Source: Rhodospirillales bacterium RIFCSPLOWO2_02_FULL_58_16 (GTDB taxonomy: Bacteria > Pseudomonadota > Alphaproteobacteria > Rhodospirillales > 2-02-FULL-58-16). Taken from it: a stretch of DNA of 64,000 bases. Position 1 is the first letter of the stretch; the number at the start of each line of letters is the position of its first letter. Made by a program: the position numbers and the translations under genes. The notes beneath the pieces are model-generated. The model was not told the DNA's origin, searched no databases, and saw only the letters and a program-made list of their open reading frames with translations. The stretch is taken from NCBI GenBank assembly GCA_001830425.1, contig MIAA01000016.1, positions 236,015-300,014 of the forward strand, read 5' to 3'. Below are positions 4,872 to 62,042 of this stretch, piece by piece.

Positions 4872-4875
4872 TCCT

Positions 4876-6162: not shown

Positions 6163-6174
6163 GGCCGGAAGCCT

Positions 6175-6684: not shown

Positions 6685-6695
6685 GAAGGTTGGTT

Positions 6696-7184
6696 CTATT
6701 TGCCGTCGGGAATTTTGGCGTTCCTGGCTTCGTAGTCGCCTTTAAGGGCGCCGACATGGCAGGATACACAGTTGTTTCTGGCCTTGATTCCCTCGCGGCT
6801 CCATACGTCGGCGGCGATGCCCTGGTGTTTGTCCTTGAAGCGCGGCGTATCAATGATCCTGAGCGGCGGCTCCTCGCGGTTAATGCCTTCCATGAAGGTG
6901 CGGCCGTTTTGCGAGCCGCTCATATCCGACGAGCGGCCGGTAAAATAAGACAGGATCTTGCCGACGGTTGCTTCATCAAGGCCGACTTCCTTTCCGAAGT
7001 GATTCTTAAGCCCCTTCATGATGGTTTCCCATGACTTGGCGGGAAGCATCTCCGGGTTGAACACCATGTGGCAGGAGCCGCATTCCTTCTTGACGGCGCG
7101 GTCAAACACCTCGATGAACGGCTGGCCGGCGGACGCCGACACGGCGATGATCGATAACATCAATGCCGGAAAGATTTTGTGCAT
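6696..7184 (-). CDS. dihaem cytochrome c family protein (paralog 2)
   Basis: Signal peptide and two CxxCH motifs (CGSCH, CVSCH). 'LPA.SW..IM.GL..HFG' is shared with paralog 1. Confidence 0.78.
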   Translation of the reverse strand: MHKIFPALMLSIIAVSASAGQPFIEVFDRAVKKECGSCHMVFNPEMLPAKSWETIMKGLKNHFGKEVGLDEATVGKILSYFTGRSSDMSGSQNGRTFMEGINREEPPLRIIDTPRFKDKHQGIAADVWSREGIKARNNCVSCHVGALKGDYEARNAKIPDGK

Positions 7185-9213: not shown

Positions 9214-9852
9214 TCACTTCAGCGTCGCTTTGCCCGCGAATTCACAAAGGTCGTAAACGATGCAATCTTCACACAGCGGTTTGCGGGCCTTGCAGACGTA
9301 ACGACCGTGAAGAACCAGCCAATGATGGGCATGCGGTTTCCACTCTTCCGGCGTCAGCCTTTCCAGCTCCCGCTCCACCGCCGCCGGCGTTTTGCCGGGG
9401 GCCAGACCGGTTCGGTTGCCGACGCGAAAGACATGAGTGTCAACGGCGATCACCGGCAGGCCGAAGGCTACATTCAACACCACGTTGGCGGTCTTGCGCC
9501 CGACTCCGGGCAGGGCTTCGAGAGCCTCGCGGTTCCGAGGCACTCGGCCGTCATATTGATCGGCCAGAACGGCGCTGAGAGCGATGATGTTCCCGGCCTT
9601 GTTGTTGTAAAGGCCGATGGTCTTGATGAAATCCTTAAGCCGCGATTCGCCTAACGCCAGCATCTTTTTCGGCGTATCGGCGACGGGAAACAGCGCCGCC
9701 GTCGCCTTGTTGACGCCTTTATCGGTGGACTGGGCCGACAACACCGCCGCCACCAGCAAGGTATAAGGATTTGTGTAATCCAACTCGCTTTTGGGATCGG
9801 GGTTAGCCGTGGACAGCCGGCGGTAAAACTGATCGATGTCGGCGCGGTTCAT
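9214..9852 (-). CDS. nth: endonuclease III
   Basis: HhH-GPD pattern and the C-terminal 4Fe-4S cluster Cys motif (C.ARKP.C..C). I chose the start at MNRADID (9852) to avoid overlapping dapB. The ORF is open to 9924. Confidence 0.93.
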   Translation of the reverse strand: MNRADIDQFYRRLSTANPDPKSELDYTNPYTLLVAAVLSAQSTDKGVNKATAALFPVADTPKKMLALGESRLKDFIKTIGLYNNKAGNIIALSAVLADQYDGRVPRNREALEALPGVGRKTANVVLNVAFGLPVIAVDTHVFRVGNRTGLAPGKTPAAVERELERLTPEEWKPHAHHWLVLHGRYVCKARKPLCEDCIVYDLCEFAGKATLK

Positions 9853-9866
9853 CGGGAAACGGCTTT

Positions 9867-10664
9867 TCAGAATCCCAAAACATTGCGCATGGAATAAAGC
9901 CCCGGCGGGCGGCCCTTGGTCCACAACGCCGCCTTGACGGCGCCGCCGGCGAAGATGGTGCGCGACGATGCCTTGTGGGTGAGTTCGATGCGCTCGCCTT
10001 CGGCGGCGAAGATGACCGTATGATCGCCGACCACGTCACCGCCCCGCAGCGTTGCGAAACCGATCTCTCCCCGGTTGCGGTCTCCGGTATGGCCGTCGCG
10101 CACCCGCCGCGACACCATGTTCAGATCAACGCCCCGGCCTTCGGCGGCGGCAGACCCCAGGGCCAAGGCCGTTCCCGACGGCGCATCCACCTTATGGCGA
10201 TGGTGCATTTCCACTATTTCGATGTCGTAATTATCGCCGAGAACGGCGGCGACGCGCTCGGTCAATCCCAGCAACAGATTAACGCCGACGCTCATGTTGG
10301 CGGCCTGTACGATAACGCATGACCCGGCGGCCCGGCGCAGGGCGTCCTGGTGTTTTGCCTCCAGGCCGGTGGCGCCGACGATCAACGCCGTTTTGTGGTC
10401 GGCGGCGAGGGCGGCGTTGGCGGCGGCGACGGCGGGAGTGGTGAAATCGATGACGGCGTCGGCGGCGGCAAACAGCGCTGCCGCATCTTCTCCCACCGGC
10501 AGTCCCAGCGCCCCGACTCCGATCAGTTCCCCGATGTCCTGACCGATGAATTCACTGCCCGCCTGCTCGGTTCCTCCCAATAACCGGCAGTTGTCGGCGG
10601 CCAGGACCTCGGCGACCAACATGCGGCCCATGCGACCGGCGCACCCGATTATTCCGATCCTCAT
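9867..10664 (-). CDS. dapB: 4-hydroxy-tetrahydrodipicolinate reductase
   Basis: MRIGIIGCAGRMG Rossmann N-terminus and 'E.HH..K.DAPSGTA'. GGAGGAG lies 5 nt upstream of the ATG at 10664. Confidence 0.93.
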   Translation of the reverse strand: MRIGIIGCAGRMGRMLVAEVLAADNCRLLGGTEQAGSEFIGQDIGELIGVGALGLPVGEDAAALFAAADAVIDFTTPAVAAANAALAADHKTALIVGATGLEAKHQDALRRAAGSCVIVQAANMSVGVNLLLGLTERVAAVLGDNYDIEIVEMHHRHKVDAPSGTALALGSAAAEGRGVDLNMVSRRVRDGHTGDRNRGEIGFATLRGGDVVGDHTVIFAAEGERIELTHKASSRTIFAGGAVKAALWTKGRPPGLYSMRNVLGF

Positions 10665-10684
10665 GAGTTCTCCTCCCCGTTCCA

Positions 10685-11827
10685 TTAGTCGTTAATATCT
10701 TCCCACAGCTCCTTGACCTTGGAGAAGAAGCCATGAGCTTCCGGGCTGTGGGTTTCGCCGGGAGATTCTTTGGTAAATTCCTTGAGCAGCTCTTTTTGTT
10801 TGGCGGTCAGATTCACCGGCGTCTCGACGACGGTTTGAACAAACATGTCGCCGAGAACCTTGGAATTCAGAACCGACATGCCTTTGCTTTTGAGACGGAA
10901 CTGTTGCCCGGTTTGAGTCCCCGGCGGGATGGCGACCCGAGCGCGGTTGCCCTGGATGGTCGGCACCTCAATGGAGCCTCCGAGCGCCGCCGTCGACATC
11001 GGAATGGGCGCCCGGCAATAAATGTCGGCGCCGTCGCGCTGGAAAATACGATGCGGTGACACGGCCAGAAAAATGTAGAGGTCCCCGGTCGGCGCTCCCC
11101 GCAGACCGGCCTCGCCCTCGCCGGAAAGGCGAATGCGGGCGCCGTCCTCGACGCCGGGCGGGATGGCGACCGACAGAGTCTTTTCCTTTTTTACCCTTCC
11201 CGATCCGCCGCAGTTATGGCACGGCTCCTTGATGACTTTGCCGTTGCCGTGACATGACGGGCAGGTGCGTTCGACGGTGAAGAAACCGGATTGGGAGCGA
11301 ACCTTGCCGTGACCATGGCAAGTCGCGCAGGTTACCGGGGCCGAGCCGCCGGCGGCGCCGCTGCCTTTGCACTCGCCGCAGGGGATTGAGGAGGGGACGC
11401 GAATATTTGTCTTCTTGCCGGCGAAGGCTTCCTCAAGGGAGATCTGCATATTGTAGCGCAGGTCGGAGCCTCGGCTCTGCGCTCCGGGGCCGCGCCGTCC
11501 GCCGCCGTGGGCAAAGTCGCCGAACATCTCATCAAAGATATCGGCGAAGCCCGAGGCAAAGCCGTTGCCGCCGGCGCCGTGACCGCCATGACCGCCCTGT
11601 TCAAACGCGGCATGGCCGAAACGGTCATAAGCGGCGCGTTTTTGTTCATCCTTCAGGATTTCATAGGCATGGCTGATTTCTTTGAATTTCTTTTCCGCGT
11701 CCGCATCGCCGGGATTGCGATCAGGATGATGCTTCATGGCCAACGTGCGATAGGCTTTCTTTATATCGTCCGCGTCGGCGTTCCGTTTAATTCCGAGAAG
11801 CTCGTAGAAATCCGGTTTGGACATCAA
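10685..11827 (-). CDS. dnaJ: molecular chaperone DnaJ
   Basis: J domain (HPDRNPGD), G/F-rich region and four CxxCxGxG zinc-finger repeats. Confidence 0.97.
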
Positions 11828-11895
11828 AAAAACCTATAATAAACTGACGCGCCCGTTTCTGTCCGGGCGTTACCGGCACCCATTTTGAAAGATTA

Positions 11896-12053
11896 GAGCA
11901 TTATTCGACCAAATTGAACCATCCCCCCCCTCACCCGGCTTCGGGTAAGGCGCATCGAGCCGACGCGCCAACCCTACGCAACCCTCTCCCCCAGCAATTT
12001 GCTGGGGGAGAGGGAAGGGTGAGAGGGGCGACGCCATTTGGTCGGATAACGCT

Positions 12054-12054
<1 letters not shown>
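11896..12054. mobile_element. MITE-like nested palindromic element in the dnaK-dnaJ spacer
   Basis: Terminal inverted repeats GAGCATTATTCGACCAAAT (11896-11914) and ATTTGGTCGGATAACGCTC (12036-12054) match at 17 of 19 positions. An internal perfect 15-bp stem lies at 11982-11996/12000-12014 (CCCTCTCCCCCAGCA-att-TGCTGGGGGAGAGGG). There is also an imperfect outer CCCCTCACCC/GGGTGAGAGGGG pair. Confidence 0.55.
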
Positions 12055-13988
<1,934 letters not shown>

Positions 13989-14150
13989 ATCATTCCTCTT
14001 CTATGCTTCCGGCGGATGCTTGCGGCGCCTGAAAAGGCGCGACGCAGACTCCCCTCGTTAAATACAAACAGCCGTGCTGATTTTCGCAAGCGGGCTTCCG
14101 GCGTTATATAAGTCGATCCCCCCGTTCGCGCAACCGTCGCCGCCATCAAA

Positions 14151-14873
14151 TTATAATTCTTCATTCAATTGCGAGCCTGAAGCATTGGACTGAGCATCCG
14201 CTTGTTTCTCGTAAACCGACTGGCCCTTTGCCGACAAATCGGGGCGGATTTTTTCCATAGCTTCCCCCGGGATCGTCGCCTTGGGGCCGCCTTTTGAAAT
14301 TCCCACCCGAGCCGGGCGCAACGGGCGGTCAAACAAAAGATATCCGGTTTCCACCACCTGAACAACGGTGCCGGCAGGCTGGCCGCCGTCCTCTATCTCA
14401 AACATGGCCTCATGCAGATTAGGGTCAAATTTCTTGCCGACGGCGTCAATGGGCTTGATGCCGGCGCGCTCGAAGGTGTTCATAATTTCCCGTTCCGATA
14501 ATTCCAGGCCGACGACCAGATTCTCCAATGCGTCGCTTTCCTTGCGGGCGTCCTTATCAACGCTTCCCAGCGCCCGGCGCAGGTTGTCATTTACCTGAAG
14601 CATCTCGCGGGCAAAGCCGGCGATGGCGAATTTTGAGGCGTTCTCCCTGTCGCGCTCGGCGCGGCGACGCACATTTTCAGACTCGGCCATGGCGCGCAGA
14701 AGCTTGTCCTTGAGTTCGGCAATTTCGGCTTCCGGCTTGCCGGCGACCTCGGCATTTGCCGAATCTCCGGCGGCGGCGGCGCTTTCAGAGGCATCTTCGG
14801 CCTCGGAAATAACCGGCGATTCATTCACCTTTGCTGTCTTCTCACTGGTGTTTTCGTTTTTGTCTTCGGCCAT
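14151..14873 (-). CDS. grpE: nucleotide exchange factor GrpE
   Basis: Acidic N-terminus, coiled coil, and the 'LR..AE.EN.R.R' pattern plus the C-terminal beta domain typical of GrpE. It sits directly downstream of hrcA. Confidence 0.95.
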   Translation of the reverse strand: MAEDKNENTSEKTAKVNESPVISEAEDASESAAAAGDSANAEVAGKPEAEIAELKDKLLRAMAESENVRRRAERDRENASKFAIAGFAREMLQVNDNLRRALGSVDKDARKESDALENLVVGLELSEREIMNTFERAGIKPIDAVGKKFDPNLHEAMFEIEDGGQPAGTVVQVVETGYLLFDRPLRPARVGISKGGPKATIPGEAMEKIRPDLSAKGQSVYEKQADAQSNASGSQLNEEL

Positions 14874-14880
14874 TTAAAAG

Positions 14881-15915
14881 TTATCCTAACATACGACTGA
14901 TGAGTTTGGCGGTGTAATCGACCATGGGGATGATTCGCGCATAGTTCATGCGGGTCGGGCCGACCACTCCGATAGCGCCCACCACCTGTTGGCGGGCGTT
15001 GCTGTAAGGGCCGACGATCATCGAGCATCCGGCAAGGCCGAATAACTTGTTGTCGGCGCCGATAAAAATCTGCACCCCTTCCGCAAGTTCGGTCATCGAC
15101 AAAATCCTGATCATGGTTTCCTTGGTCTCCAGGGCGGTGAACAGGGAGCGGATATGTTCAAGATCGGCGGTGGCGGTGATATCGTCCAGCAGGTTCGCCT
15201 GGCCGCGCACGATCAGCGAGCCGCCTTTGTTGCCGCCGGCCCAGGTGGCGAGGCCGGATTCAACAACGCGGGTCGTCAGTTCGTCAAGTCGGGCGCGGTG
15301 AGCCGCAAGTTCCTTTATGATTTCGTCATGAGCCTCGCCGATGGTGCGCCCGACCAGCCGGGCGCTCAGGAAGTTGGTGGCTTCAACCAGCGCCGATGAG
15401 GGCAGCCCGGCGGGCGTTTCGATAATGCGGTTCTCGACCACGCCGTTTTCGGTAATGATGATCACCAGCGCCCGGCCCGGACTAAGGCTGACGAACTCTA
15501 TGTGGCGAAGCGGGCTGTCCGTCTTCGGCGCCAGCACCAGCCCGGCGCACCGCGACAGCCCGGAAAGCGCCGAGATGGCTTCTCCCAGCAGGCCCTCGAA
15601 ATTGGCGTCGGCGCCGGCGCAACGGCTGTTGATGTTCTTTTGCTCATCTTCGGTCAGATTGCCGACCTCAAGAATTCCATCGACAAATATTCTTAACCCG
15701 GCTTCCGTCGGCAGCCGCCCGGCGGAGGCGTGGGGCGCGTATAACAATCCCATATCCTCCAGATCGGCCATGACGTTGCGGATGGTCGCCGGGGACAGGC
15801 CCATTTTCAGCTTTCGCGACAAGGTGCGCGAGCCGATAGGCTCTCCCGTATCGACGAAGGCTTCGATGATATGCCTGAAAACTTCGCGTGATCGTTCGTT
15901 AAGTTCGGAAATCAT
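14881..15915 (-). CDS. hrcA: heat-inducible transcription repressor HrcA
   Basis: The N-terminus LNERSREVFRHIIEAFVDTGEPIGSRTLS is typical of HrcA. The hrcA-grpE order is conserved. Confidence 0.95.
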   Translation of the reverse strand: MISELNERSREVFRHIIEAFVDTGEPIGSRTLSRKLKMGLSPATIRNVMADLEDMGLLYAPHASAGRLPTEAGLRIFVDGILEVGNLTEDEQKNINSRCAGADANFEGLLGEAISALSGLSRCAGLVLAPKTDSPLRHIEFVSLSPGRALVIIITENGVVENRIIETPAGLPSSALVEATNFLSARLVGRTIGEAHDEIIKELAAHRARLDELTTRVVESGLATWAGGNKGGSLIVRGQANLLDDITATADLEHIRSLFTALETKETMIRILSMTELAEGVQIFIGADNKLFGLAGCSMIVGPYSNARQQVVGAIGVVGPTRMNYARIIPMVDYTAKLISRMLG

Positions 15916-50547: not shown

Positions 50548-50958
50548 CTAAGGACTTTGCGTGGCGAAGGCGATCCGGGTGATGCCGCAATTGCGAACCA
50601 GGGACAGCAGTTCGGTGATGTCCTGGTAGGGAAGCGTCGCGTCGCCGCCCAGCCGCAGCACCAGCTTTTCGGAACGGGTCCGCACCATTCCGCTCAGGAC
50701 GTTATGCAGTTCGCCGTAAGTGATCGGCGATCCGTCAAGCTCCAGGCTTTTGTCTTTGCGCATGACCAGATCGGCGACTTCCGGGTCTTGCGACGCGGCG
50801 GCGGCAACGCGGGGAAGATCGATTCTCAACGCCTGGGCCATCAGCGGCGCGGCGATAATAAAGATCACCAGCAGAACCAGCATGACATCCACCAGCGGGG
50901 TGACGTTGATTTCCGAGAGCGGTTGGTCAAAATCGCCGCCGTCAATATTGAACGCCAT
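50548..50958 (-). CDS. exbD: biopolymer transporter ExbD/TolR
   Basis: 'INVTPLVDVMLVLL.IF' motif, 136 aa. Confidence 0.9.
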   Translation of the reverse strand: MAFNIDGGDFDQPLSEINVTPLVDVMLVLLVIFIIAAPLMAQALRIDLPRVAAAASQDPEVADLVMRKDKSLELDGSPITYGELHNVLSGMVRTRSEKLVLRLGGDATLPYQDITELLSLVRNCGITRIAFATQSP

Positions 50959-50959
50959 T

Positions 50960-51613
50960 TCAGCTCTTCCTTTCGGCAGGAGGAAAAAAGGCGTCCAGGA
51001 TGCGCATGGCGTTGCCTTCGATAATGCCCATGATGCGTCTCAGGCGGCGCAGCAGCAGGTTATACCCGACCACGGCGGGAATGGCGACGAACAGACCCGC
51101 CGCCGTTGCCGTCAGGGCCTCGGCGACCGGACCGGCGATCATATCCATAGAGAGGGCGGCGTCGCCCCCCAGCCCTTGCAGGGCGTGCATGATTCCCCAT
51201 ACCGTGCCGAACAGGCCGATAAAGGGCGCGGCGTTGCCGGTGGTGGCAAGAAGGGTGAGAAAGTTTTCCATTTCCATGCGGCGTTCTTTAAGGATGTGCG
51301 AGAAAACCGCCTCTGTTCGGCTACGGTCGCCGGCATTAAAAACCGCCGCGCCGCCGCCGTCGGCCGCCCGCAACAAATGGACTGAAGGAACATGTTCGGG
51401 CAAGGCGGCGGCCAGATTCGCCGGCGGCGCGCCGCCGATTATTCCGACGCCGAGGCGTCGTTCATGACGATGAATCGAGGCGAACTGCCAGACCTTGAAG
51501 ACAATAACGGTCCAACTGGCGAGCGAAAGGGCGAGCAATAAAAGAAAAACCAGACGCACGATCCAGTCCGCTTCACTCCACCATGCAAGCCAGGAAATAT
51601 TTTCAACCGCCAT
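50960..51613 (-). CDS. exbB: MotA/TolQ/ExbB proton-channel protein
   Basis: Three TM segments, with 'L..IA...P..GL.GTV.G' and 'A...A..TTA.GL..AIP'. Confidence 0.9.
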
Positions 51614-51627: not shown

Positions 51628-52278
51628 CTAACTGTTTTGAAGCACAAAACGGATGGGGATTTCGACGAAGGCGGCGACCGGCTTGCCGCCTCGGGTGGCG
51701 GCGACGAATTTCCAGCGCCGGACCGATTCGACGGCGGCGTCGTCAAGAAGATTAACCCCGGAGCTTTCCTTCACGGTCAGGCTTAACGGCAAGCCCTCGG
51801 CGCTGACCTCCACCGTTAGCAGGACGGCGCCTTGCAGGCCTTTTCGCCGCGCCTGGGCGGGGTATAAAGGATGGGGATTCTGAAGATAGGCGGCCCTGTT
51901 GTCGGGAGGAACATAAGAGAGCGATTCGTCCTTCTGCGCCACGGTCGTTGATGAGGCCGCAGGCGTCGGCTCCGGTTTCGGCGTTGATGTTTCCTCTTTC
52001 GGCAATGTATCTTTCACGGGCGGATGCGGCTTGCGGATCGGCGCTTTCAGTTCCGCGACTTCGGCTTTAACGGGTTCGGATTGCCTCGCCGTTTCAGGTT
52101 CAGGCTCCGCCTTCGGCGCCGGGACAGGCGTCGGCGCGGGCAGATCGACGACCTCGAAATTACCGGCTTCAATGGACGTCGAAGTTGAAGGGAGAGTTTG
52201 CTGATAAAGCGCGAAGGCGATGCCTGCATGAAAAACTACGGCTATTCCCAGCGATATCGACGTTCGCAACGCGGTCAT
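51628..52278 (-). CDS. tonB: energy transducer TonB
   Basis: N-terminal anchor, a Pro/Glu/Lys-rich spacer and the C-terminal 'YP..A...G..G.V.L...V...G' domain. Confidence 0.88.
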
Positions 52279-52760
52279 TTTACTTGCCCCTCAAGCCATT
52301 TCGAGAGGGCGGACTCATCAAGGAGGCCGGATTCAACTTTGATCTCTCCGTTGACTCCGATGAGGTAGGTTCGCGGAAGTTCTCCGCTCCAGTTCTTATC
52401 AACTTCGTAGCGCAGCCTCTCGACGAAGGTATCCGCAAAAACCCATTTTTCGGCCTTTGCCGGGGCGTATTTTTCCAGTGTTCGGAGAATGCGCGGGATA
52501 TCGTTCTCGGCATCGGTGGAAACCATGGTCAGGCGGACATCCGCCCCGCTCTCCAGTATTTTTTTCAATATCGGCATCTCGGCAAGGCAAGGCGGGCAAC
52601 CGATGGACCAGAAGTTGACGATGTGGGGCCGGCCCCGTCCGGCCTCAACGATGGCGGCGAAGCTGCCGCGAACGAAAGGGCGTACTATTGTTTCCTCTGC
52701 CGGTGCGGCAACGGCGGTAGAGGCAAGAAGAAACACGACTAACCCCAAAGTCCGCATCAT
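52275..52760 (-). CDS. TlpA-like thioredoxin-fold protein (CPPC active site), exported
   Basis: Signal peptide MMRTLGLVVFLLASTAVAAPA and 'VNFWSIGCPPCLAEMP'. ATGA overlaps at both ends (52757-52760 and 52275-52278). Confidence 0.8.
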   Translation of the reverse strand: MMRTLGLVVFLLASTAVAAPAEETIVRPFVRGSFAAIVEAGRGRPHIVNFWSIGCPPCLAEMPILKKILESGADVRLTMVSTDAENDIPRILRTLEKYAPAKAEKWVFADTFVERLRYEVDKNWSGELPRTYLIGVNGEIKVESGLLDESALSKWLEGQVK

Positions 52761-54013
52761 GGCGCGTTTCCGCCCACTTTGAACAAGCGCCAGCCTTCCG
52801 CCAGCGTCGCCCACGACAGGTAAACTGAGCGTCCGTCATGAACCAGCAGCGGATGATCCGATGTGTCGGCGGTGGTCGAAATGCGTAACGGCTTTGACCA
52901 TGTGCGTCCGTCATCTCCTGATTCCATGACAAAAATTTCGCCGGTCTCGCCGGTGAATTCCTTCCATGCCACGAACGTCTTTCCTCCGGCGGCCAGGACA
53001 TGAGGGCGCGCCGCCCGGTTGGAACGGTTGCCGAAGCCGTAGGGCGCGGAGAAGGCGTTGCCTCCGTCTTCGGAGTGTGCGTAAAACAGCCCCTTGCGCG
53101 CCGCGCCGTCGGTAAACCAGACAATGTGCAAAACGCCGTTGTCGCCGATGGCAAGCGCCGGGCCGTGATGAGGACAGCCGTCAAGCTTCCAGAGGTCTTC
53201 GCTTACCCGCGTCAGGCGACCGGGGGAGCCGTCGGCGTTCAGTTTCATCAAGGCATGGTCGCGGATATTGCCTTCAAAGACATGCCGCCAGGCGATCACA
53301 GGCGATCCGGCGCCGTCAATAGCCATGGTGATTCGACAACATTCACAACTGTGATCGGCCAGCTTTATGTTGGCGGAAAAGCTTTTTCCGCCGTCGTCGG
53401 AATAAGCGTAATAAATGGCGGAACCGGCGTACTTTTTCTGTTGTTGTTTGGCCGCCTCTCTATCGCGCTTGTCGATCCATGAGATATGGATGCGGCCGTC
53501 GGCGCCGACGTTAAGCGTTTCAAAGCTCTGGCTCACCGGCTTGTCCTCGTCGGTGATGACGACCGGCGGGGAGAAAACCTTGCCGCCGTCCGTCGAGCGG
53601 CTGAAATAAACAATGCCGGAGTATTTCTGCTCGCCTTTAACAGTGAAGGCGACATAGAGCGAGCCGTCCGGCGAGACCGCTATCTTGGGACGGTTTTCTC
53701 CGTTCTTTTCGATGTCGAGCGGCTTGGGCGCGACCTTGGCCGACGCGGCGAACGACGCGCCGCCGTCTTCAGAGCGGGCAACATATACATATCCGTTTTG
53801 CGTCCATGTCAGCCATAGATGCCCCTTGGCGTCGAACAGGGGCGTCGGCGTTTCGGCGCAGCGCGGTGACGGTTCGGCTTGCGGGCCGACACATTCAGAA
53901 GCGGCTTTTTCGTGTTTGGGCTGATGGGCGACCGCTTGGCCGCTCATGACAAGGCCGGCGCCGGTTACAGACAGGCTTAAAATAGTCGGCAGGATGTATT
54001 TCATTTTTTTCAT
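52757..54013 (-). CDS. BNR/Asp-box repeat beta-propeller protein (sialidase-fold), exported, Cys/His-rich
   Basis: Signal peptide and five Asp-box-like motifs (SEDGGASF, STDGGKVF, SDDGGKSF, SEDGGNAF, SGDDGRTW). Clusters HSCECC and DGCPHHG are present. I chose the ATG at 54013. Confidence 0.8.
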   Translation of the reverse strand: MKKMKYILPTILSLSVTGAGLVMSGQAVAHQPKHEKAASECVGPQAEPSPRCAETPTPLFDAKGHLWLTWTQNGYVYVARSEDGGASFAASAKVAPKPLDIEKNGENRPKIAVSPDGSLYVAFTVKGEQKYSGIVYFSRSTDGGKVFSPPVVITDEDKPVSQSFETLNVGADGRIHISWIDKRDREAAKQQQKKYAGSAIYYAYSDDGGKSFSANIKLADHSCECCRITMAIDGAGSPVIAWRHVFEGNIRDHALMKLNADGSPGRLTRVSEDLWKLDGCPHHGPALAIGDNGVLHIVWFTDGAARKGLFYAHSEDGGNAFSAPYGFGNRSNRAARPHVLAAGGKTFVAWKEFTGETGEIFVMESGDDGRTWSKPLRISTTADTSDHPLLVHDGRSVYLSWATLAEGWRLFKVGGNAP

Positions 54014-54020: not shown

Positions 54021-56069
54021 TCACCACTTGGCGCGAATGCCGGCAAAAGCGGATCGGCCATCGCCGGGATTAAACTGCGCGGAAGCCGAGGTGGCCCGGT
54101 TAATCACGCTTGCGTTGGAGATATAGGCGGTATTTCCGAGATTACGACCCTCGACATACGCGGAGACGTTCTCATTGAAATCCTGAACGGCCTTCATTCC
54201 GAAGATCACATAAGGATCGGTTTGCAGCGTATTGGCGTTGTCGGCGTAGTAGCCTTTAGGCACCCATTCCATATTCGGTCCGATCGATAAACCGATCGGG
54301 TGCTTGTAGAGCATTTCGCCGCGAAGGAAATGACGAGGCGCTCCCGGAAGCTGGTTGTCGTTGTAGTTGCGGTCGCTGTCGAACGTAAAGTCATTGAACG
54401 TATAAGCAAGATTCAGCCCTATTTTATCTTTTTGGCTGAAAAGGTCATGGAGAAAATCGGCGCCGCCGCCTAATTCCAATCCCTGGTGAATGGTCCTGTG
54501 AACGTTCGTTACATTACACCCGGCGACGGCGCTTTGCAGACATTGCAATTCGTTATGTATTTCCGCCCGATAGGCCGCCAGATTCCACTTGTAGTTTGAC
54601 CGTTGCCCCCGCGTGCCGACCTCGTATGTCGTGGCGGTCTGTTCCTTGACGGTGGTGAACGGAACGGCGGCTCCGCCGCTTTCGCCGAAACTGGGAACTT
54701 CGGCGCTGCGGGAAATATTGGCGAAGGCCTGCCAGTCGGGGTCCACATCCCACAACAGGCCTACTTTGGGACTCAAAAGGCTGAAGCTGTTGCGACCCGA
54801 CGCATCGCCGTTGGACAGGAAGGTATCCTTCCGGTCGCGCACCGCATGGAGGAATTGCAAGCCGCCGACGACCGCCACGTTCGGAATTATGGAAAATGAG
54901 TCCTCTCCATAGGCGATATAGTTTTCCGACGAATCAAATGATGATGACTGGAGAGCGCCTCTTAGCCCTTTTGCGTTCGCGTACTGTCTGTTGTCGATCC
55001 TGCCGTTGATAATATTGAATCCGACAACGGCCCTGTTCTTGTGGCCGAGAATTGACCGCCCGTCTACCGCCCGGATAAAACCGCCATAGTCTTTATAACT
55101 GTAGTCGATCAACTGGAATATGGGATGCAGCAGTTGTCGATCAACGCCGAACGCCCCTAAATCGACGGTCGTCGATTCAAAGCGCAGCGTCGTTTTATTG
55201 GCGACTCGAACCGTATCGATATTACGTTGATAATCGTTTGTTTTATTGGCGTTCGCTCCTCCCTCCGGGAATAACAAGGCGGCGGCTTTTGTTACTTCGC
55301 CGGGGATGCGTTGATGAACATTGTTGGCGTTGACATAAAAGCGCGTCTCGATGTCAGGCGTCAGTTGATAGCCCAGATTCACCGAGCCGCGATATGAATC
55401 GCCCCCCGTATGATCGCGCCAACCTTCTTGCTGTTGACGGGCGGCGGTGACGAAGTAATCAACCGGCCCGACAACCGCTCCGGAACTTGCCTGCTGACGG
55501 TTGAAGCCGAAGCTGCCGACATCGGCGCTGACGGCGGCAATCGAGGCGTCGCGTCCGCTGGGGGTGACGAAATTGATGGCTCCGCCCAGCGAATTGCCGC
55601 CGAACTGAAGCGCATTTGCACCCTTGTAGACATCAACGTGCCGATAGGCGCCGGGATCGATCTCCTGAAAATCGCCATAGCCGTCGGCGGTGTTGATCGG
55701 GATTCCGTCCATATACAACTGGATGCTGCGTAAGTGGAAATTGCGGGACAAGCTGGAGCCACGGATTGAAAGTCTGGTGTCGGCGCCCCATTTCGGCTGA
55801 ACGAACACGCCGGGGACATAGTCCAGCACGTCCTTGAGCGTGGCCGCCGGCCCGTTCTTGAAGACCGTATCGGCGATCACTTCAACGGCGCCCGGCGTCC
55901 GCCGGATTTCTTCTTGCGCCTGCTCCGTCGTCGGAACCGTAAGGCTTTCATTCAGGGGAGCGCCGACCACGGTTACCGCCGGCAGTTCGGTCGCCGATTG
56001 GCTGAAGGCGGGATTGGAGATCGCGATCATGGCGGTTGTCGCCATAAGCGCTTTACTAATGTGTTTCAC
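54021..56069 (-). CDS. TonB-dependent outer-membrane receptor
   Basis: Signal peptide, a TonB-box-like 'LPAVTVVG', a plug domain, a long beta-barrel and the C-terminal 'AF.GIRAKW'. GTG start with GGAGGGGG upstream. Confidence 0.93.
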   Translation of the reverse strand: MKHISKALMATTAMIAISNPAFSQSATELPAVTVVGAPLNESLTVPTTEQAQEEIRRTPGAVEVIADTVFKNGPAATLKDVLDYVPGVFVQPKWGADTRLSIRGSSLSRNFHLRSIQLYMDGIPINTADGYGDFQEIDPGAYRHVDVYKGANALQFGGNSLGGAINFVTPSGRDASIAAVSADVGSFGFNRQQASSGAVVGPVDYFVTAARQQQEGWRDHTGGDSYRGSVNLGYQLTPDIETRFYVNANNVHQRIPGEVTKAAALLFPEGGANANKTNDYQRNIDTVRVANKTTLRFESTTVDLGAFGVDRQLLHPIFQLIDYSYKDYGGFIRAVDGRSILGHKNRAVVGFNIINGRIDNRQYANAKGLRGALQSSSFDSSENYIAYGEDSFSIIPNVAVVGGLQFLHAVRDRKDTFLSNGDASGRNSFSLLSPKVGLLWDVDPDWQAFANISRSAEVPSFGESGGAAVPFTTVKEQTATTYEVGTRGQRSNYKWNLAAYRAEIHNELQCLQSAVAGCNVTNVHRTIHQGLELGGGADFLHDLFSQKDKIGLNLAYTFNDFTFDSDRNYNDNQLPGAPRHFLRGEMLYKHPIGLSIGPNMEWVPKGYYADNANTLQTDPYVIFGMKAVQDFNENVSAYVEGRNLGNTAYISNASVINRATSASAQFNPGDGRSAFAGIRAKW

Positions 56070-56194
56070 AGGAGGCCCCCTCCATTTAGATGGTTATGGT
56101 TTTCCGCTTATGCGTCTGTTGCGGAAGTCGTGCGCAAACAGGCGCAAGGCCCGGTCGCGGGCTGACAACGTCAAAGACGCTTTAACTTATGGAT

Positions 56195-56653
56195 TTAAGC
56201 GGAAAGGGAGGGAGGGGCGCGTGGCTGGAGAGGTCCGGCCGGAACGGCGGAGGCGTCGGCGCTGCCGATAATCGGAAAGCGCAGGCGGGCGACGGTGAGG
56301 TCGAGCGCCGAAGAATCGATTGTTTGTTGCGGCGCGAGTAAAACAAGTTTCGAGAACGGCAGACAGAAATCGCAGAGTTTTTCTGCGGCTTTTTCGTTGG
56401 GGACGGGCATCCCGTTTGCGTCGACCTTGACTAACTGGGGACCATTCGCCGTGCAGAATACGCTGAATGATGTCCGGTCTTTGGAAGGTGACTGGGCATT
56501 GCCGATCTTGGCGCCGGGCAGGGCCGACGCCGCCAGAATATTGAGGGCGAGTACGGACGTCAGCAGCCATGAGGTCAGCCGACGGCCCAGGCGCCGCCCG
56601 AAGAAAAGGCGGCCCCCGGCTGAACCGATTATATTATGATCACCAAGCTGCAT
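56195..56653 (-). CDS. DUF2946-like small protein
   Basis: N-terminal hydrophobic segment, then 'FCTANGPQLVKVD' and 'LCDFCLPF'. These resemble the DUF2946 'CT..G ... C.FC' pattern as I remember it. The start is ambiguous (56653, 56698 or 56797). Confidence 0.5.
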   Translation of the reverse strand: MQLGDHNIIGSAGGRLFFGRRLGRRLTSWLLTSVLALNILAASALPGAKIGNAQSPSKDRTSFSVFCTANGPQLVKVDANGMPVPNEKAAEKLCDFCLPFSKLVLLAPQQTIDSSALDLTVARLRFPIIGSADASAVPAGPLQPRAPPSLSA

Positions 56654-56781
56654 GCGCGCCAATCTATATCGGGCCGATGCCCAAGTAAAGTCGGACATCC
56701 CCAAAAGAGTTGACCTGCCTGACGGCATGGACCAGATTCGCGTATTCCAGGTTTGTTTTGCCGAATATAAACGGAAACAAA

Positions 56782-57300
56782 ATGAGCGATGCGACAAACA
56801 GTCATGACCCTCCCGAGGGCGATTCCGAGAAATTTCTTGCCTTTCAGAAGAAGGCCAAGGCCGCCAATCTTAACGAGCAGACTCTTCTCGCCACCGACTA
56901 TCTCAACCATTTTAACGAGATCGTCATGACCATCGAGATGATTCCCGATATGCCGGAGCTGCTTGAAGAAGCGCGGGAATGGCGCCCCAAATCATATCAG
57001 GATCACTTTCGCGACAGCACGTTCGCCGGCAAGGATATGGCCATCGAAGCCTACGAATATGTTCCCGCCAGATACCGCACGCCTTTCGAGGCCAACATCG
57101 CCGCCATTAACCGTTTTATCGCCATGACCGTAAAAAATGCCGAAGACGCCGTGGCCTCCGGCGATAACGACAGGCTGAGACTGCTTATGACCGACGCCTC
57201 GCACAGCATCCAAAAGATTATGGACATGGCCAGCGCCAATATCCACGGCAGCGAGCACGCCCTGGATCAGGCTGAAGTCGATGCGTTACTGGGGGTTTAG
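56782..57300 (+). CDS. conserved hypothetical protein
   Basis: 172 aa from the ATG at 56782 ('TLLATDYLNHFNEIVMTIEM...'). It has good coding character, but I recognise no family. Confidence 0.6.
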   Translation: MSDATNSHDPPEGDSEKFLAFQKKAKAANLNEQTLLATDYLNHFNEIVMTIEMIPDMPELLEEAREWRPKSYQDHFRDSTFAGKDMAIEAYEYVPARYRTPFEANIAAINRFIAMTVKNAEDAVASGDNDRLRLLMTDASHSIQKIMDMASANIHGSEHALDQAEVDALLGV

Positions 57301-57663
57301 ATTCTCGTCCTCGCCCGCATAGACGCAGCCTGCGGTGCAGGTTTCGCGGATCGCCACCTTGGACAGTTTGGGCAGGCGGGGTTTCAGGTTTCGCCATATC
57401 CAGCGGGCGATAATTTCGCTGGTGGGATTCTCCAGCCCTTCGATGTCGTTGAGATAGTAGTGGTCCAGCCGCAGGCGGATGGGTTCATAGGCTTCCTTGA
57501 CGTCGGCAAAGTCCATCACCCAGCCGAGCTTGGGGTCAAGATCGCCGGCGACGTGAATCTCGGCCTGGAATGAATGGCCGTGCAGCCGCGAGCACTTGTG
57601 GTTTGCAGGCAGGTTGGGCAGACGATGAGCCGCCTCGAAGGTGAATGTCTTGTAGATGTCCAT
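57286..57663 (-). CDS. queD: 6-carboxytetrahydropterin synthase
   Basis: 'F.F.AAH.LP......KC..LHGHS' motif. Confidence 0.93.
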   Translation of the reverse strand: MDIYKTFTFEAAHRLPNLPANHKCSRLHGHSFQAEIHVAGDLDPKLGWVMDFADVKEAYEPIRLRLDHYYLNDIEGLENPTSEIIARWIWRNLKPRLPKLSKVAIRETCTAGCVYAGEDENLNPQ

Positions 57664-57665
57664 GG

Positions 57666-58301
57666 TTATCTGATGCCGAGTTGTTTCTGTATTTGCAGAC
57701 TAAGACGCCACTTGGGACGCTCCAGACAGAAGCGCATGGCCGATTCGGTGTTCTTCGCCAATTCCGCGCCGTCCATGGGCTGAAGGAAGAAGTGCCGGAA
57801 GTCAAGGTTTTCATACCATCGGGGATCGGCGTCCGGCTGGGGATAAACCAGCTTTAGCTCATCGCCGGCGGTCAGGACAAGGTTGCTCCCGGCCTTGGGG
57901 CTGACGCAGACCCAGTCCAGCCCGTCCGGCGCGGGCAGGGCGCCGTTGGTCTCGGCGGCGACTTCAAAACCGGCGTCATGAAAAGCGGCGATCAGTTTTT
58001 TATCGAGTTGAAGAAAAGGTTCGCCGCCGGTGCACACCACCATCGGTCGGCCCGTTGTTGTCTTCGGCCACAGGGCGAACGCGGCGCGGGCCAGTTTGTC
58101 CGCCGTCCTGAAGCGCCCGCCGCCGCCGCCGTCAACGCCGATAAAATCGGTGTCGCAAAAGGAGCATGTCGCCGAGGCCCGGTCATCTTCCCGGCCCGAC
58201 CACAGGTTGCAGCCGGCAAAGCGGCAAAAGACGGCGGCGCGTCCGCTTTGCGCCCCTTCGCCTTGAAGGGAATAAAACATTTCTTTTACGGCGTAGCTCA
58301 T
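57666..58301 (-). CDS. queE: 7-carboxy-7-deazaguanine synthase (radical SAM)
   Basis: 'F.S.QGEG...G....F.RF.GCNL' and the extended Cys motif (...C.FCDT.F). Confidence 0.92.
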
Positions 58302-58990
58302 GGCGTATCAGCCGGGTCGGCAAGCCCCGCCTCCGCGAAGCCCTTGCGACGCAGACGGCAAGCGTCGCATTCGCCGCAGGGGACGGCGCGGGGGCCGGGA
58401 TCATAGCAGCTCAAGGTCAAACCGTAGTCAACGCCGAGTTCCAGGCCCCGAATGATGATTTGCCCCTTGGTGAGGTTGATCAGCGGCGCATGGATGGTGG
58501 TTTTGCGCCCTCCTTCGACGGCGGCCTTGGTGGCGAGATCGGCCATTGCCTGAAAGGCGGCGATGAATTCAGGGCGACAATCGGGGTAACCGCTATAGTC
58601 CAGCGCGTTGACGCCGATGAAGATGTCATCGGCGGCCATCACCTCGGCCCAGCCCAGCGCATAGGAAAGAAAGATGACGTTGCGCGCCGGAACATAAGTC
58701 ACCGGCACGCCGGATTTCATTTCCTCATCCGAGCGTCCCTTGGGCGCCTCTACGCCGTCGGTCAGCGCCGAGCCGTGAAAGGCTTCCGGGCCGATATCGA
58801 CGATCTTGTGTTCAGCGGCGCCGGCGGCGGCGGCGACGGCGCGGGCCGCCTCAATCTCCAGGCTGTGGCGCTGACCATAGCGGAAGGTCAGGGCATGGGC
58901 CTCAAACCCCATGTTCATGGCGATGGCCAGCACGGTGGCGGAATCCAGTCCTCCGCTGAGCAGCACCACGGCCTTTGTTTTTTCTCTCAT
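58298..58990 (-). CDS. queC: 7-cyano-7-deazaguanine synthase
   Basis: '[11 protein letters not shown]' PP-loop and the C-terminal 'CG.CD.C..R..GF'. I chose the ATG at 58990. Confidence 0.95.
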
Positions 58991-59040
58991 AATCGTGCTT
59001 TTATTGGTTTTCGGGATTTTATGATAGAGCGCAGACGATA

Positions 59041-60075
59041 ATGAAAAAAGCGAAACAAGCCATTCGCGCCGAAGCATCGGCGCTGGGCTTTGACGCCGTG
59101 GCCTTTTGCGCCGCCGTCGATGCGCCCGACGACGAGGCTAACCGCCGCCATTTGAAGGCTTATCTGGCGCGAGGAAATCACGGCTCGATGGAGTGGATGG
59201 CCGAAACCGCCGGGCGTCGCTCAACGCCGACCGCCTTGTGGCCGGAGGCGCAGAACATCATTGTGCTGGGGGTTAATTACGGACCTGAAGGCGATCCCCG
59301 GCAGGCCCATGGCGATCCGGCCAAGGGCGCGGTCAGCGTTTACGCCCAAGGGCATGAATATCAGGACGTTATCAAGAAACGTCTCAAGCATCTGGCTCGT
59401 TGGATGGTCAAGACCTACGCCTGCCAAGTCAAGGTGTTCGTCGATACGGCGCCGGTAATGGAGAAGCCGTTGGCGGCGCGGGCCGGTCTGGGCTGGCAAG
59501 GCAAACACACCTGTCTGGTCTCGCCTGAGTTCGGCTCATGGCTGTTCCTTGCCGAGATATTCACCACTCTCGAACTGGAGCCGGACAAGGCGGGGGTTGA
59601 TCGGTGCGGTTCGTGTCGGGCCTGCATCGACGCCTGTCCCACCGGCGCCCTTTACGAGCCGTATCGTTTGGATGCCCGACGCTGCATCTCCTGCCTGACT
59701 ATCGAACATAAGGACTCCATCGATCTCGAATTGGCGGCAAGGATGGGCAATCGCGTCTTCGGTTGCGACGACTGTCTGGCGGCGTGTCCGTGGAACAAGT
59801 TCGCTACGCCGACCGGAGAGGGAAAATTTCAGCCCAGGGAGGGCGCCGCCGACCTCTCTCTGGCCGAGTTGGCGACGCTGGATGACGCCGCCTTCCGTCG
59901 TCGCTTCGCTAAAAGCCCCCTCAAGCGCACCGGCCGGGACCGGATGGTACGCAACGCCCTGATCGCCGTCGGCAACAGCGGCGACCCTTCTCTTGCCAAG
60001 ATTGCCGAGAAGTTGCTGAATGACGATTCAGCCCTGGTGCGCGAGGCGGCCGAACGGGCGCTGGAACGATTTTAA
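59041..60075 (+). CDS. queG: epoxyqueuosine reductase
   Basis: Two ferredoxin-type Cys clusters ([23 protein letters not shown]) and C-terminal HEAT-like repeats. Confidence 0.92.
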
Positions 60076-62042
60076 TGTTTTTCGGCTTTGTCGGCGTGTC
60101 GGGTAAGAAATTTCTGTGCGCCGTGCTTGCGTCCGGTGCGCGTTCCCTCGCCGCCGTCGCCGCCTGTGCCCTTGGGCTGCCATGCGGGGACCAGATGTTT
60201 CTTGCCGGGTCCGATCAAGTCCTGACGGCCCATTTTTTTCAGCGACTCCCGAATCTGCGGCCAGTTTTCAGCGTCGTGATAGCGTAGGAAAGCCTTGTGC
60301 AATCGGCGCTGTTTTAATCCTTTGGCGGTCTTTACCTCTTCGCCGGCGTTGCGGCGCACCGGCTTGAGCGGGTTGCGCCCGGAATAATACATGGCGGTGG
60401 CCAGACTCATGGGCGAGGGCAGAAAGGTCTGCACCTGATCGGCGCGCAGGTTGTTGTTCTTCAACCACATGGCCAGATTCATCATGTCTTCGTCGGTCGT
60501 GCCGGGGTGGGCGGCGATGAAGTACGGGATCAGGTAGTACTCCTTGCCGGCTTTCTTCGCCGCCTGATCGAACATTCTCTTGAAGCGGTCGTAAGCGCCG
60601 ATGCCCGGCTTCATCATTTTGGACAACGGACCCGGCTCGGTATGTTCCGGGGCGATTTTCAGGTAGCCGCCGACATGGTGAGTGACCAGTTCCTTGACAT
60701 AGGCGGGGCTTTCCGCCGCCAGATCGTAGCGTAACCCGGACGCTATATGCACCTTTTTGACGCCGTCAACGGCGCGGGCTTTTCGGTAAAGTTCGATAAG
60801 CGGGCCGTGGTCGATGTCCAGATTACGGCAAATGACCGGATAAACGCACGACAAGCGGCGGCATACGGCCTGGATATCGTCGTCCTTGCAGGCCATACGG
60901 TACATATTGGCCGTCGGCCCGCCGAGGTCCGAGATATGGCCGGTGAAACCTTCCACCTTGTCGCGGATGTCTTTTATTTCCTTGATGATCGAGTCCGGCG
61001 AACGGTTTTGAACGACGCGGCCTTCGTGTTCGGTGATGGAGCAGAACGTACAGCCGCCGAAACAGCCGCGCATGATGTTGACGGAAAAACGGATCATCTC
61101 CCATGCCGGGATGCGCCTTCCGGCATATGCCGGGTGCGGCGCACGGGCATAGGGCAGGTCGTAAACGCCGTCCATCTCCGGCGTCGTCAGGGGAATGGGC
61201 GGCTGGGTGAGCCATATCTCCCGCCCGCCCTGATTCTGAATCAACGCATGGGCGTTGCCGGCGTTGCTTTCCTGATGCAGGATGCGCGACGCATGGGCAT
61301 ACAGCTCAGGTTTTGCCGTCACTTCGTCGTAACCCGGCAGGCGAATCACGGCGGCGCATTCCGCGCCGTTCATTGAATTGCAGGCAAAGGCGACGCCGCG
61401 AATGTCGCGCATATTCTTCGGCGCGATTCCCTTGGCCGTTCTGTGTGCGATTTCGACTATGGCGCGCTCGGCGTTGCCGTAAACCAGCAGGTCGGCCTTG
61501 CTGTCGATCAGGATGGAGCGCCGCACTTTATCCGACCAGTAGTCATAATGGGCGACGCGGCGCAGCGACGCCTCGATCCCGCCGATGACGATGGGGACAT
61601 CGTGAAAAGCCTCGCGGCAACGCTGGGCGTAGACGATGACGGCGCGATCCGGGCGCTTGCCGCCCTCATCTTCCGGCGTATAGCTGTCGTTGTGGCGCAG
61701 ACGGCGGTCGGCGGTGTAGCGATTGACCATCGAATCCATGTTGCCGGAGGTCACGCCCCACATCAGGTTGGGCGGTCCCAGCGTCGTGAAGGCCTCGGCG
61801 TTCGACCAGTCGGGCTGGGCGATAATGCCGACGCGAAACCCCTGGGCTTCCAGCAAACGGCCGATGATGGCCATGCCGAAGCTGGGGTGATCGACGTAGG
61901 CGTCGCCGGTCACCAGGATGATGTCGCATGAATCCCAGCCCAGCCTGTCCATCTCGTCCCGCGACATGGGCAAAAACGGCGCAACGCCGAAACGCCGCGC
62001 CCAATAAGGGCGATAGCCGAAAAGATTCTTCGCCTTGATCAT
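60072..62042 (-). CDS. YgiQ-family radical SAM protein (UPF0313)
   Basis: 656 aa, with '[13 protein letters not shown]' and the basic C-terminal tail typical of YgiQ. Confidence 0.9.

Follow-up and report, generated by a model that had tools for sequence, protein, structure and literature searches.

A predicted seven-bladed Asp-box propeller annotated as a sialidase is a candidate thiol-based copper handler encoded in a TonB operon

What does a protein bearing the signature of sialidases do inside a TonB operon? The question is raised by the gene at 52757-54013 (minus strand) in a stretch of 64,000 nucleotides from Rhodospirillales bacterium RIFCSPLOWO2_02_FULL_58_16 (contig MIAA01000016.1, positions 236,015 to 300,014; the whole stretch is hereafter called the window). 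An initial annotation, made from the sequence alone, had suspected that its product is not a sialidase and that its Cys/His clusters form a metal- or cofactor-binding or redox-active site. Judged from sequence and a structural model, the protein is a widespread, mis-annotated propeller of seven blades; its Cys4/His site is invariant, and a thioredoxin-like protein is coupled or fused to it. As read from its genes, the window operon is a variant of a known copper-regulated transporter operon to which a propeller-redoxin module has been added, and in the window and in several lineages the propeller operons are marked as copper systems by sequence. On the best reading, the propeller would use its thiols in the periplasm either to accept copper or to act as a cupric reductase. 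The broader claim, that it handles copper in the periplasm through a thiol-based Cys/His site downstream of a copper-regulated TonB-dependent transporter, is one that we hold with evenly balanced confidence, on the grounds of genomic context and conservation.

The Cys/His residues and the predicted fold of the propeller

The propeller gene and the codons of its Cys and His motifs are located as follows.

52757-54013, minus strand: Asp-box propeller gene; translation of 418 amino acids with a Sec signal peptide, Pfam BNR_2
53336-53347, minus strand: CECC codons
53165-53176, minus strand: CPHH codons
53891-53893 and 53858-53860, minus strand: codons of the N-terminal Cys41 and Cys52

All the motifs listed in the initial annotation are present in the 418-residue translation, namely the five Asp-boxes SEDGGASF (residues 81-88), STDGGKVF (140-147), SDDGGKSF (205-212), SEDGGNAF (314-321), and SGDDGRTW (365-372), the clusters ADHSCECCRI (219-228, with HSCECCRI at 221-228) and LDGCPHHGPA (277-286, with DGCPHHGP at 278-285), and the N-terminal Cys pair held by ECVGPQAEPSPRCAE (40-54). 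The protein has six Cys in total, every one inside the CECC, CPHH, or N-terminal motif. Across 241 aligned homologues, some of them representatives no more than 50% identical to each other, C223, C226, and C280 are found in 241/241 sequences and C225 in 240/241; they are accompanied by R243 (100%), R251 (99%), W275 (99%), D252 (98%), H296 (96%), H253 (94%), H282 (92%), and H283 (85%, otherwise Gln), and six Arg residues are invariant in the family. Conservation therefore holds for the four Cys of the CECC and CPHHG clusters and fails for the N-terminal pair, which is clade-specific and present in ~40-45% of the sequences. The clade without this pair often shows H-D-M-x-K-M-W at the same position; an N-terminal HDMxxMW was considered as a Met-based stand-in for the pair and was left unused, as it occurs in only 34-42/234 sequences, and 91 have neither. 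The pair is found in 22/28 loci without a redoxin gene versus 25/58 loci with one, a comparison that is confounded by phylogeny.

The family is large: >3,385 clusters at 90% identity match the propeller, and 1,748 proteins (50%-identity clusters) fall below E 1e-30 in a profile search of 1.84 billion representatives. As the initial annotation had foreseen, all the named homologues go by the name of sialidase or glycoside hydrolase ('exo-alpha-sialidase', 'sialidase family protein'). A literature search retrieved no paper on the family, and the reports on CruR, CrtA, CrpH, and CopG (PMC9426467, PMC12914433, PMC13038864, PMC7558416) do not mention it; a mention of BNR in a mutant-fitness preprint concerns an unrelated Ycf48-like protein.

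The start of the gene affects how the N-terminus is read. An ATG at 54061 would extend the open reading frame (ORF) so that it overlaps the transporter gene at its 3' end and gains 16 residues before a normal Sec signal peptide; because of this overlap and extension, the ATG at 54013, 7 nt past the transporter stop, is the better start. The identical public protein (P0001) is called from the following ATG, giving 415 amino acids. The protein begins with MKKMKYILPTILSLSVTGAGLVMSGQAVA, a signal peptide of the Sec type that has no twin arginines, and export of the Sec rather than the Tat type argues against a pre-assembled Fe-S cofactor. The tail after the signal peptide (residues 30-40, ~53894-53926, minus strand) is disordered and mildly His-rich; HxxH-type strings occur near the N-terminus in 110/227 sequences, and the His enrichment of this region is modest (1.8 per 28 residues vs 1.0 expected).

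Structure prediction and a fold search, both proposed in the initial annotation, place the conserved residues on one face of the protein. The AlphaFold2 model, computed on a 25-sequence alignment (predicted local distance difference test, pLDDT, 88; predicted template modelling score, pTM, 0.85), has seven blades as read from the DSSP strand pattern (54-93, 110-152, 162-222, 229-269, 286-327, 335-381, and 389-415), with the Asp-boxes between strands 3 and 4 of blades 1, 2, 3, 5, and 6. The positions of the motifs on the propeller faces were deduced from strand order and known propeller topology: CECC(R) falls in the loop that precedes the innermost strand of blade 4, CPHHG in the corresponding loop of blade 5, and E106/R108, D386/H387, and R251-D252-H253 in the equivalent top-face loops of other blades. 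In the model, the conserved Cys, His, Arg, and Asp residues sit on the face opposite the Asp-boxes, which is where Asp-box propellers have their active site. Four invariant Cys, their predicted placement in adjacent loops of the active face, and the coupling or fusion to a CxxC protein support the initial proposal of a metal, cofactor, or redox site.

Foldseek found no close relative of the model in the PDB. The best query-normalised TM-scores (0.55-0.59) are those of the PHL/PLL2 lectins, GH145, and PL25, which are seven-bladed propellers, and those of sialidases are lower (0.43-0.51), with E-values of ~1e-10 to 1e-12 that reach 4e-12. Of the phrase "sialidase-fold propeller", with which the protein was first described, the propeller stands, and the sialidase fold holds only approximately, the model being seven-bladed. 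Like GH33 sialidases and BNR_2 proteins, the propeller has four-stranded blades with Asp-boxes (S-x-D-x-G-x-T/F-W/F) between strands 3 and 4, and it has five of them, but Asp-boxes are not specific to sialidases. The catalytic domain of GH33 enzymes is six-bladed and carries an N-terminal (F/Y)RIP motif; the modelled propeller has seven blades, and its translation contains no RIP or FRIP motif, as already noted in the initial annotation, the nearest string to RIP being the invariant E-N-R-P-K at 106-110, past the first Asp-box. As for the Arg triad, the Tyr/Glu nucleophile pair, and the Asp acid/base of GH33 active sites, no sequence alignment with sialidases spans the catalytic positions, the profile matches to solved ones (22 bits or less) being confined to Asp-boxes.

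That the protein nonetheless hydrolyses an imported glycan, as a true sialidase or related glycoside hydrolase in keeping with its database names, is hardly credible. This explanation would account for the matches to Pfam BNR_2 (PF13088; 43.8 bits, cut-off 31.4, residues 190-382) and BNR_4, both above their cut-offs, for the five Asp-boxes, and for the low Foldseek E-values, and an invariant Arg could bind a carboxylate sugar. However, the family profile matches solved sialidases only locally, at the Asp-boxes (best 22 bits, E 5e-4). Moreover, no genes for sugar transport or catabolism are among the families conserved around the propeller gene, where the context is one of metal uptake, and the hosts are largely chemolithotrophs and methanotrophs. 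Sialidases have no invariant CxCC/CPHH site, and a sialidase function would leave this site unexplained, together with the fused thioredoxin domain, CruR, and PCuAC described below. The suspicion that the protein is probably not a sialidase is thus supported by the blade number, the missing RIP, the matches confined to Asp-boxes, the better TM-scores with non-sialidase propellers, the hosts, and the missing sugar genes.

The operon, its CruR-type leader, and its redox partner

The other elements of the operon, in the order of transcription, are listed here.

56195-56653, minus strand: CruR-type leader ORF (Pfam DUF2946), counted from Met49 of an open frame that runs up to 56797
56363-56374, minus strand: CDFC codons of the leader ORF
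56210-56221, minus strand: RAPP codons of the leader ORF, then SLSA and the stop
56070-56194, minus strand: spacer of 125 nt between leader and transporter
54021-56069, minus strand: TonB-dependent outer-membrane transporter, 682 amino acids (Pfam Plug, E 6e-20; TonB_dep_Rec_b-barrel, E 1e-37)
52275-52760, minus strand: exported thioredoxin-like thiol:disulfide oxidoreductase, 161 amino acids, with CPPC at 52587-52598
51628-52278, minus strand: TonB, 216 amino acids, start overlapping the end of the thioredoxin-like gene (Pfam TonB_C, E 9e-22)
50960-51613, minus strand: ExbB, 217 amino acids (Pfam MotA_ExbB, E 3e-29)
50548-50958, minus strand: ExbD, 136 amino acids, the final gene of the operon (Pfam ExbD, E 9e-25)

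Gene order (DUF2946 leader ORF, transporter, propeller, CPPC thioredoxin-like protein, TonB, ExbB, ExbD) and the Pfam matches confirm that the propeller gene lies in a TonB operon beside a CPPC redoxin. The leader had escaped the initial annotation and, together with the PCuAC genes of related operons, it points specifically to copper. In Bordetella pertussis, CruR senses copper through a CXXC motif, and the release of a RAPP-dependent translational arrest leads to Rho-dependent termination before the transporter gene; the hallmarks of CruR are the CXXC, a C-terminal RAPP, and a spacing of 45 +/- 1-2 residues between them (PMC9426467). As judged from its translation, the window leader ORF carries these hallmarks: in the longer frame of 200 residues, CDFC (142-145) follows a hydrophobic, signal-like segment and is separated by 47 residues from RAPP (193-196), which ends 4 residues from the C-terminus. 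Its score against Pfam DUF2946 is 23.7 bits, exactly equal to the cut-off. Long spacers are typical after cruR homologues, and that of B. pertussis contains the site of Rho-dependent attenuation (PMC9426467); an Rfam search of the 125-nt spacer returned no family match. The public gene call on the identical contig does without the leader ORF (window 56195-56797, minus strand; 223-936 in L089) and shows a 713-bp 'intergenic' gap where it lies. Called beside the gap instead is an ORF of 172/196 amino acids on the opposite strand (window 56710-57300, plus strand), with no Pfam or NCBIfam match.

The thioredoxin-like gene starts at an ATG that overlaps the TGA stop of the propeller gene (ATGA), and it is called with the same 161 amino acids on the public contig. 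Its product has a signal or anchor sequence and a WSIGCPPC motif. It matches Pfam AhpC-TSA, Redoxin, and Thioredoxin weakly, as it does the ResA, DsbE, StoA, and TlpA models of NCBIfam, in all cases below the equivalog cut-offs (for TlpA, 22.6 vs 230 bits), and its solved relatives are a redoxin-domain protein (8e-7), Sco1/YpmQ, StoA, DsbE, ResA, and CycY. Because every match stays below the equivalog cut-offs, its assignment, which is based on profile matches, goes as far as the TlpA/ResA/DsbE superfamily and not further.

A redox partner of this kind would also suit a function apart from metals, in which the two proteins together would be a thiol-dependent enzyme of the periplasm, either a reductase or a peroxidase, with a substrate such as an organosulfur compound, a sulfoxide, or a peroxide, copper being only the regulator; such a function is highly improbable. 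Periplasmic proteins that fuse a thioredoxin domain to reductases, such as Neisseria PilB (Trx-MsrA-MsrB), offer a precedent, and the redoxin does match AhpC-TSA and Redoxin profiles. AhpC_TSA genes in cruR operons have, in addition, been interpreted in terms of peroxide detoxification (PMC9426467). Yet AhpC-TSA is matched below its cut-off (23.5 vs 26), the protein has a CxxC rather than the active site of a peroxiredoxin, and the tight coupling to a TonB-dependent transporter and to PCuAC would go unexplained.

The propeller-redoxin module in other lineages

Eighty genome loci were retrieved with the CECC- and CPHH-region motifs as search patterns; neighbours were counted with iterated profiles built from the window proteins, and dereplication consisted of merging at 70% propeller identity, which gave 42 groups. 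The hosts include Magnetovibrio, Methylobacter, Methylomonas, and other Methylococcales, Gallionella, Sideroxydans, Nitrotoga, Sulfuricella, Sulfurimicrobium, Thioalkalispiraceae, Acidiferrobacterales, and many Bradyrhizobium strains; apart from Bradyrhizobium, they are methanotrophs or oxidisers of iron, sulfur, or nitrite. The gene directly upstream of the propeller codes for a transporter in at least 62 of the 71 loci with room for one, a thioredoxin-like gene lies directly downstream in 58/81 loci (31/42 dereplicated groups), and TonB, ExbB, and ExbD are frequent neighbours. Across loci L001-L086, the propellers are 41-55% identical to that of the window and the partner transporters only 20-28%, with the exception of a Nitrotoga locus (L031), where transporter identity reaches 41%. 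Since propeller identity is far above transporter identity, the propeller is the constrained element, and its module pairs with several transporter subfamilies.

Among the 150 best representatives of the family, 22 carry the propeller and a C-terminal, Pfam-supported CxxC thioredoxin-like domain in a single polypeptide, and these natural fusions argue for a direct partnership of the two proteins. The fusions (P0128, P0137, P0138, P0148, P0164, and 17 others) vary in their CxxC (CPPC, CAPC, CVYC, CPHC, CGPC, CIWC, and others), and five are without the exact CPHH string. Moreover, a DsbD_2 (CcdA-like) gene is found in four loci, in two of which it is directly upstream of the module.

The partnership bears on a second explanation, which we regard as unlikely though less so than a non-metal reductase: the four Cys would pair up in structural disulfides (one might link the two loops and another be vicinal, for example), the propeller would bind or process the organic substrate of the transporter, and the thioredoxin-like protein would be a folding oxidase or isomerase. 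Invariant Cys of exported proteins are often disulfide-bonded, the numerous invariant Arg, Asp, and Trp that share their face resemble a pocket for an anionic organic ligand, the top Foldseek superpositions include the uronate-acting seven-bladed GH145 and PL25, and the variable CxxC dipeptide of the fusions leaves room for differing redox roles. Conversely, the thioredoxin-like partner is nearest to the reductive ResA, DsbE, StoA, TlpA, and Sco group, the electron importer DsbD_2 neighbours the module, CPHH and other conserved His flank the Cys, and the links to CruR and PCuAC suggest a metal rather than an organic nutrient.

A few loci depart from the common arrangement. In L087, the DsbD_2 gene (5944-6618) is directly upstream of the transporter-propeller pair, and the propeller is followed by a redoxin remnant of 98 amino acids (10431-10727) without the CxxC-bearing N-terminal half; upstream of the DsbD_2-transporter-propeller run, 1547-5762 holds a second transporter, a protein of 282 amino acids, and a Fer4_5 polyferredoxin-like membrane protein, Fer4_5 being also present in the cupric reductase CcoG. 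A Methylococcaceae contig (L053) has two propeller paralogues 2.7 kb apart (5865-7046 and 9758-11098), the upstream one being far more divergent (E 7e-61 vs 9e-112 for the downstream copy). In redoxin-less loci of Methylobacter and Methylococcales (L005, at 9514-15798, L012, L016, L018, L025, L027, and L067), the propeller is followed by an ATP-binding cassette (ABC) ATPase, two ABC-2/DUF3526 permeases, a VTT (DedA-like) protein, and TonB-ExbB-ExbD.

Proposed copper handling, its possible mechanism, and what weighs against it

The marks of copper extend beyond the window. CruR-like leaders, defined by a CxxC, 35-55 residues, and then R[AG]PP at the ORF end, lie upstream of the transporter in 23/86 loci, with hosts that include Bradyrhizobium, Magnetovibrio, Nitrotoga, a Thalassospiraceae genome, and an alphaproteobacterial genome. 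Furthermore, clustering of neighbour ORFs and Pfam identified PCuAC (PF04314, E 4e-42) as the next gene after the redoxin in 22 loci, which belong to Bradyrhizobium, a Thiohalomonadaceae genome, and a Nitrospiria bin; the Bradyrhizobium loci have the order CruR-transporter-propeller-redoxin-PCuAC.

The closest known arrangement is the cruR-crtA-crpH operon of B. pertussis, in which ExbBD/TonB genes are sometimes included, with PCuAC/ScoI genes in some relatives. CrtA, the CruR-regulated transporter, imports carboxylate-chelated copper for haem-copper oxidases (PMC12914433), and crpH, the next gene, codes for a PepSY_TM protein proposed to be a periplasm-facing copper reductase and shows a synthetic growth phenotype with ccoG, a putative copper reductase gene (PMC13038864). 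The window operon does not follow this scheme gene by gene. Its transporter is not demonstrably of the CrtA type, having 682 amino acids against 707-911 in CrtA orthologues, and the haem-containing CrpH is replaced by the soluble Cys/His propeller and the thioredoxin-like protein. By analogy, the most economical reading is that the propeller occupies the place of CrpH in the B. pertussis operon, and its chemistry may rely on thiols where CrpH relies on haem, maybe for the same step.

On the copper reading, the candidate copper site would consist of C223-x-C225-C226 and C280-P-H282-H283 with neighbouring His, Arg, and Asp residues, as placed by alignment and model. When copper is scarce, the CruR leader peptide would stop triggering premature termination and the entire operon would be expressed, a direction of regulation that is assumed from the transporter-containing B. 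pertussis operon. The transporter, driven by its own TonB-ExbB-ExbD, would carry copper, probably in the form of a small chelate, into the periplasm, where the Cys/His site of the propeller would take it over; the propeller would be either an acceptor of Cu(I) or a cupric reductase that uses thiols to strip the metal from the chelate. The thioredoxin-like protein would keep, or make again, the propeller Cys reduced in the oxidising periplasm with electrons drawn from a DsbD/CcdA-type membrane protein, and the copper would be handed to chaperones such as PCuAC for the assembly of copper enzymes. What the analysis shows is the gene order, the motifs and their conservation, the predicted fold, the synteny, the fusions, and the linkage to CruR and PCuAC; in this scheme we infer copper as the ligand, the directions of regulation and of electron flow, and the hand-off partners.

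A more specific version, tentative and in our judgement rather doubtful, makes the propeller a candidate cupric-chelate reductase or decomplexase: an Arg-lined pocket would bind a carboxylate-type copper chelate, as the six invariant Arg would fit a chelate like the one imported by CrtA, and the CxCC/C/His site would reduce Cu(II) and capture Cu(I), possibly in a Cys-bridged multicopper cluster, before electrons from DsbD/CcdA and the thioredoxin-like protein regenerate the thiols and Cu(I) passes to PCuAC.

Several observations weigh against copper. A CruR or PCuAC link is found in only 9/42 dereplicated groups of the sampled loci. The window transporter is not of the OprC type and has no match to a CrtA structure; its nearest solved relatives are YncD/PqqU (1e-33 across the N-terminal part), its score against the copper-receptor model TIGR01778 is 19 bits (cut-off 472 bits), and its NCBIfam matches are siderophore-type. 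The four Cys could form two structural disulfides instead, as discussed above. In the cutFOG operon, a DUF2946 leader peptide can switch genes on with copper (PMC7558416), which is the opposite of the direction assumed here. Lastly, the Methylobacter/Methylococcales clade of methanotrophs has an ABC-2/DUF3526 transporter in place of the redoxin, in a gene set whose resemblance to the Zur-regulated znuK-znuGHI of Caulobacter (PMC4176598) hints at zinc.

These last points feed a third explanation, in which the site binds another thiophilic metal (zinc, nickel, cobalt, or iron(II)) and copper is merely a regulator in some lineages; we consider it quite unlikely. To the znuGHI-like system, the siderophore-type matches, and the lack of CruR and PCuAC in most sampled groups, it can add that DUF2946 genes also occur beside czrCBA Zn/Cd efflux genes. 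Against it stand the canonical CruR leader of the window operon and the copper-specific PCuAC gene inside the operon in three lineages. In addition, no Fur-like or Zur-like box rises above the window background upstream of the operon, and no cobalamin or other riboswitch was found in the window (E <= 1) or in seven loci without CruR. Periplasmic zinc proteins, for their part, normally use His, Asp, and Glu instead of Cys as ligands.

Other known copper proteins share parts of the proposed copper site. CopG, a periplasmic copper oxidoreductase from the DUF2946-led cutFOG operon, uses a CxCC motif to bind a tetranuclear copper cluster bridged by Cys and has been proposed to interconvert Cu(I) and Cu(II) (PMC7558416). 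Like the propeller, whose CxCC is C223-E-C-C226, CopG is exported. However, CopG is a small thioredoxin-fold protein (DUF411) from resistance and efflux clusters, whereas the CxCC considered here lies on a propeller without the DUF411 fold, in an uptake context and with the thioredoxin fold on a separate CxxC protein. A PDB profile search with the propeller family found no match to CopG and no sequence similarity.

The Bradyrhizobium TlpA-ScoI-PcuC system is alike in combining a Cys-based periplasmic copper site with a dedicated, membrane-anchored thioredoxin-like reductase and PCuAC, a Cu(I) chaperone. There the copper site belongs to ScoI, and TlpA maintains it in the reduced state. ScoI has the Sco thioredoxin fold with CxxxC and His, whereas the propeller has 400 amino acids, four Cys, and several His, and is linked to an outer-membrane importer. 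The CuZ domain of NosZ is a periplasmic seven-bladed propeller and, by analogy, the central-axis loops of the window propeller would carry a multi-ligand copper site that is assembled once the protein has been exported. NosZ is exported by Tat and holds a central copper-sulfide cluster with seven His ligands; the window propeller differs in its four Cys and His, its Asp-boxes, and its Sec export, and NosZ is not among the top Foldseek matches of the model.

A YncD-like transporter adjoining an exported seven-bladed propeller also recalls YncD (PqqU) and YncE of Escherichia coli. Unlike the window propeller, YncE has no Asp-boxes and no Cys cluster, its gene is transcribed divergently, and it is dispensable for the uptake of pyrroloquinoline quinone (PQQ); it is not in the top 50 Foldseek matches of the model. 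A link to PQQ, suggested by the nearness of the transporter to PqqU and by the vicinal Cys of PQQ dehydrogenases, was rejected on the score against the PqqU equivalog (140 vs a 1200-bit cut-off), the dispensability of YncE, and the lack of any other PQQ context.

Cytochrome oxidases, N2O reductase, and methane or ammonia monooxygenases are built with the help of periplasmic chaperones, and the passage of copper from the outer membrane to these chaperones is poorly understood. Many of the hosts (methanotrophs, iron, sulfur, and nitrite oxidisers, rhizobia) rely heavily on copper enzymes. A 2020 review lists CcoG, which acts on cytosolic copper, as the sole specific bacterial cupric reductase (PMC7558416), and the description of CrpH, a candidate that faces the periplasm, dates only from 2026 (PMC13038864). 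If the propeller is a copper acceptor or reductase, it would supply a missing step in copper acquisition, thousands of sialidase annotations would be corrected, and the Asp-box propeller fold would gain a new type of metal site; if it is a reductase or decomplexase, it would be a haem-free counterpart of CrpH, and no catalytic metal site would have been described before it on a propeller of the BNR/Asp-box kind.

The flanks of the operon are housekeeping in nature. The gene beyond ExbD is convergent and codes for a Cys/Met-metabolism enzyme dependent on pyridoxal phosphate, and queC/D/E-like genes, queG, and a YgiQ-type radical SAM gene complete the flanks. The queuosine cluster (window 57286-62042) lies directly upstream of the operon and is probably unrelated to the propeller; it comprises a QueD-like PTPS protein, a probable QueE (no Pfam match at 1e-5), QueC, and a divergent QueG, and is followed by the YgiQ-type radical SAM protein (Radical_SAM_N and DUF3362).

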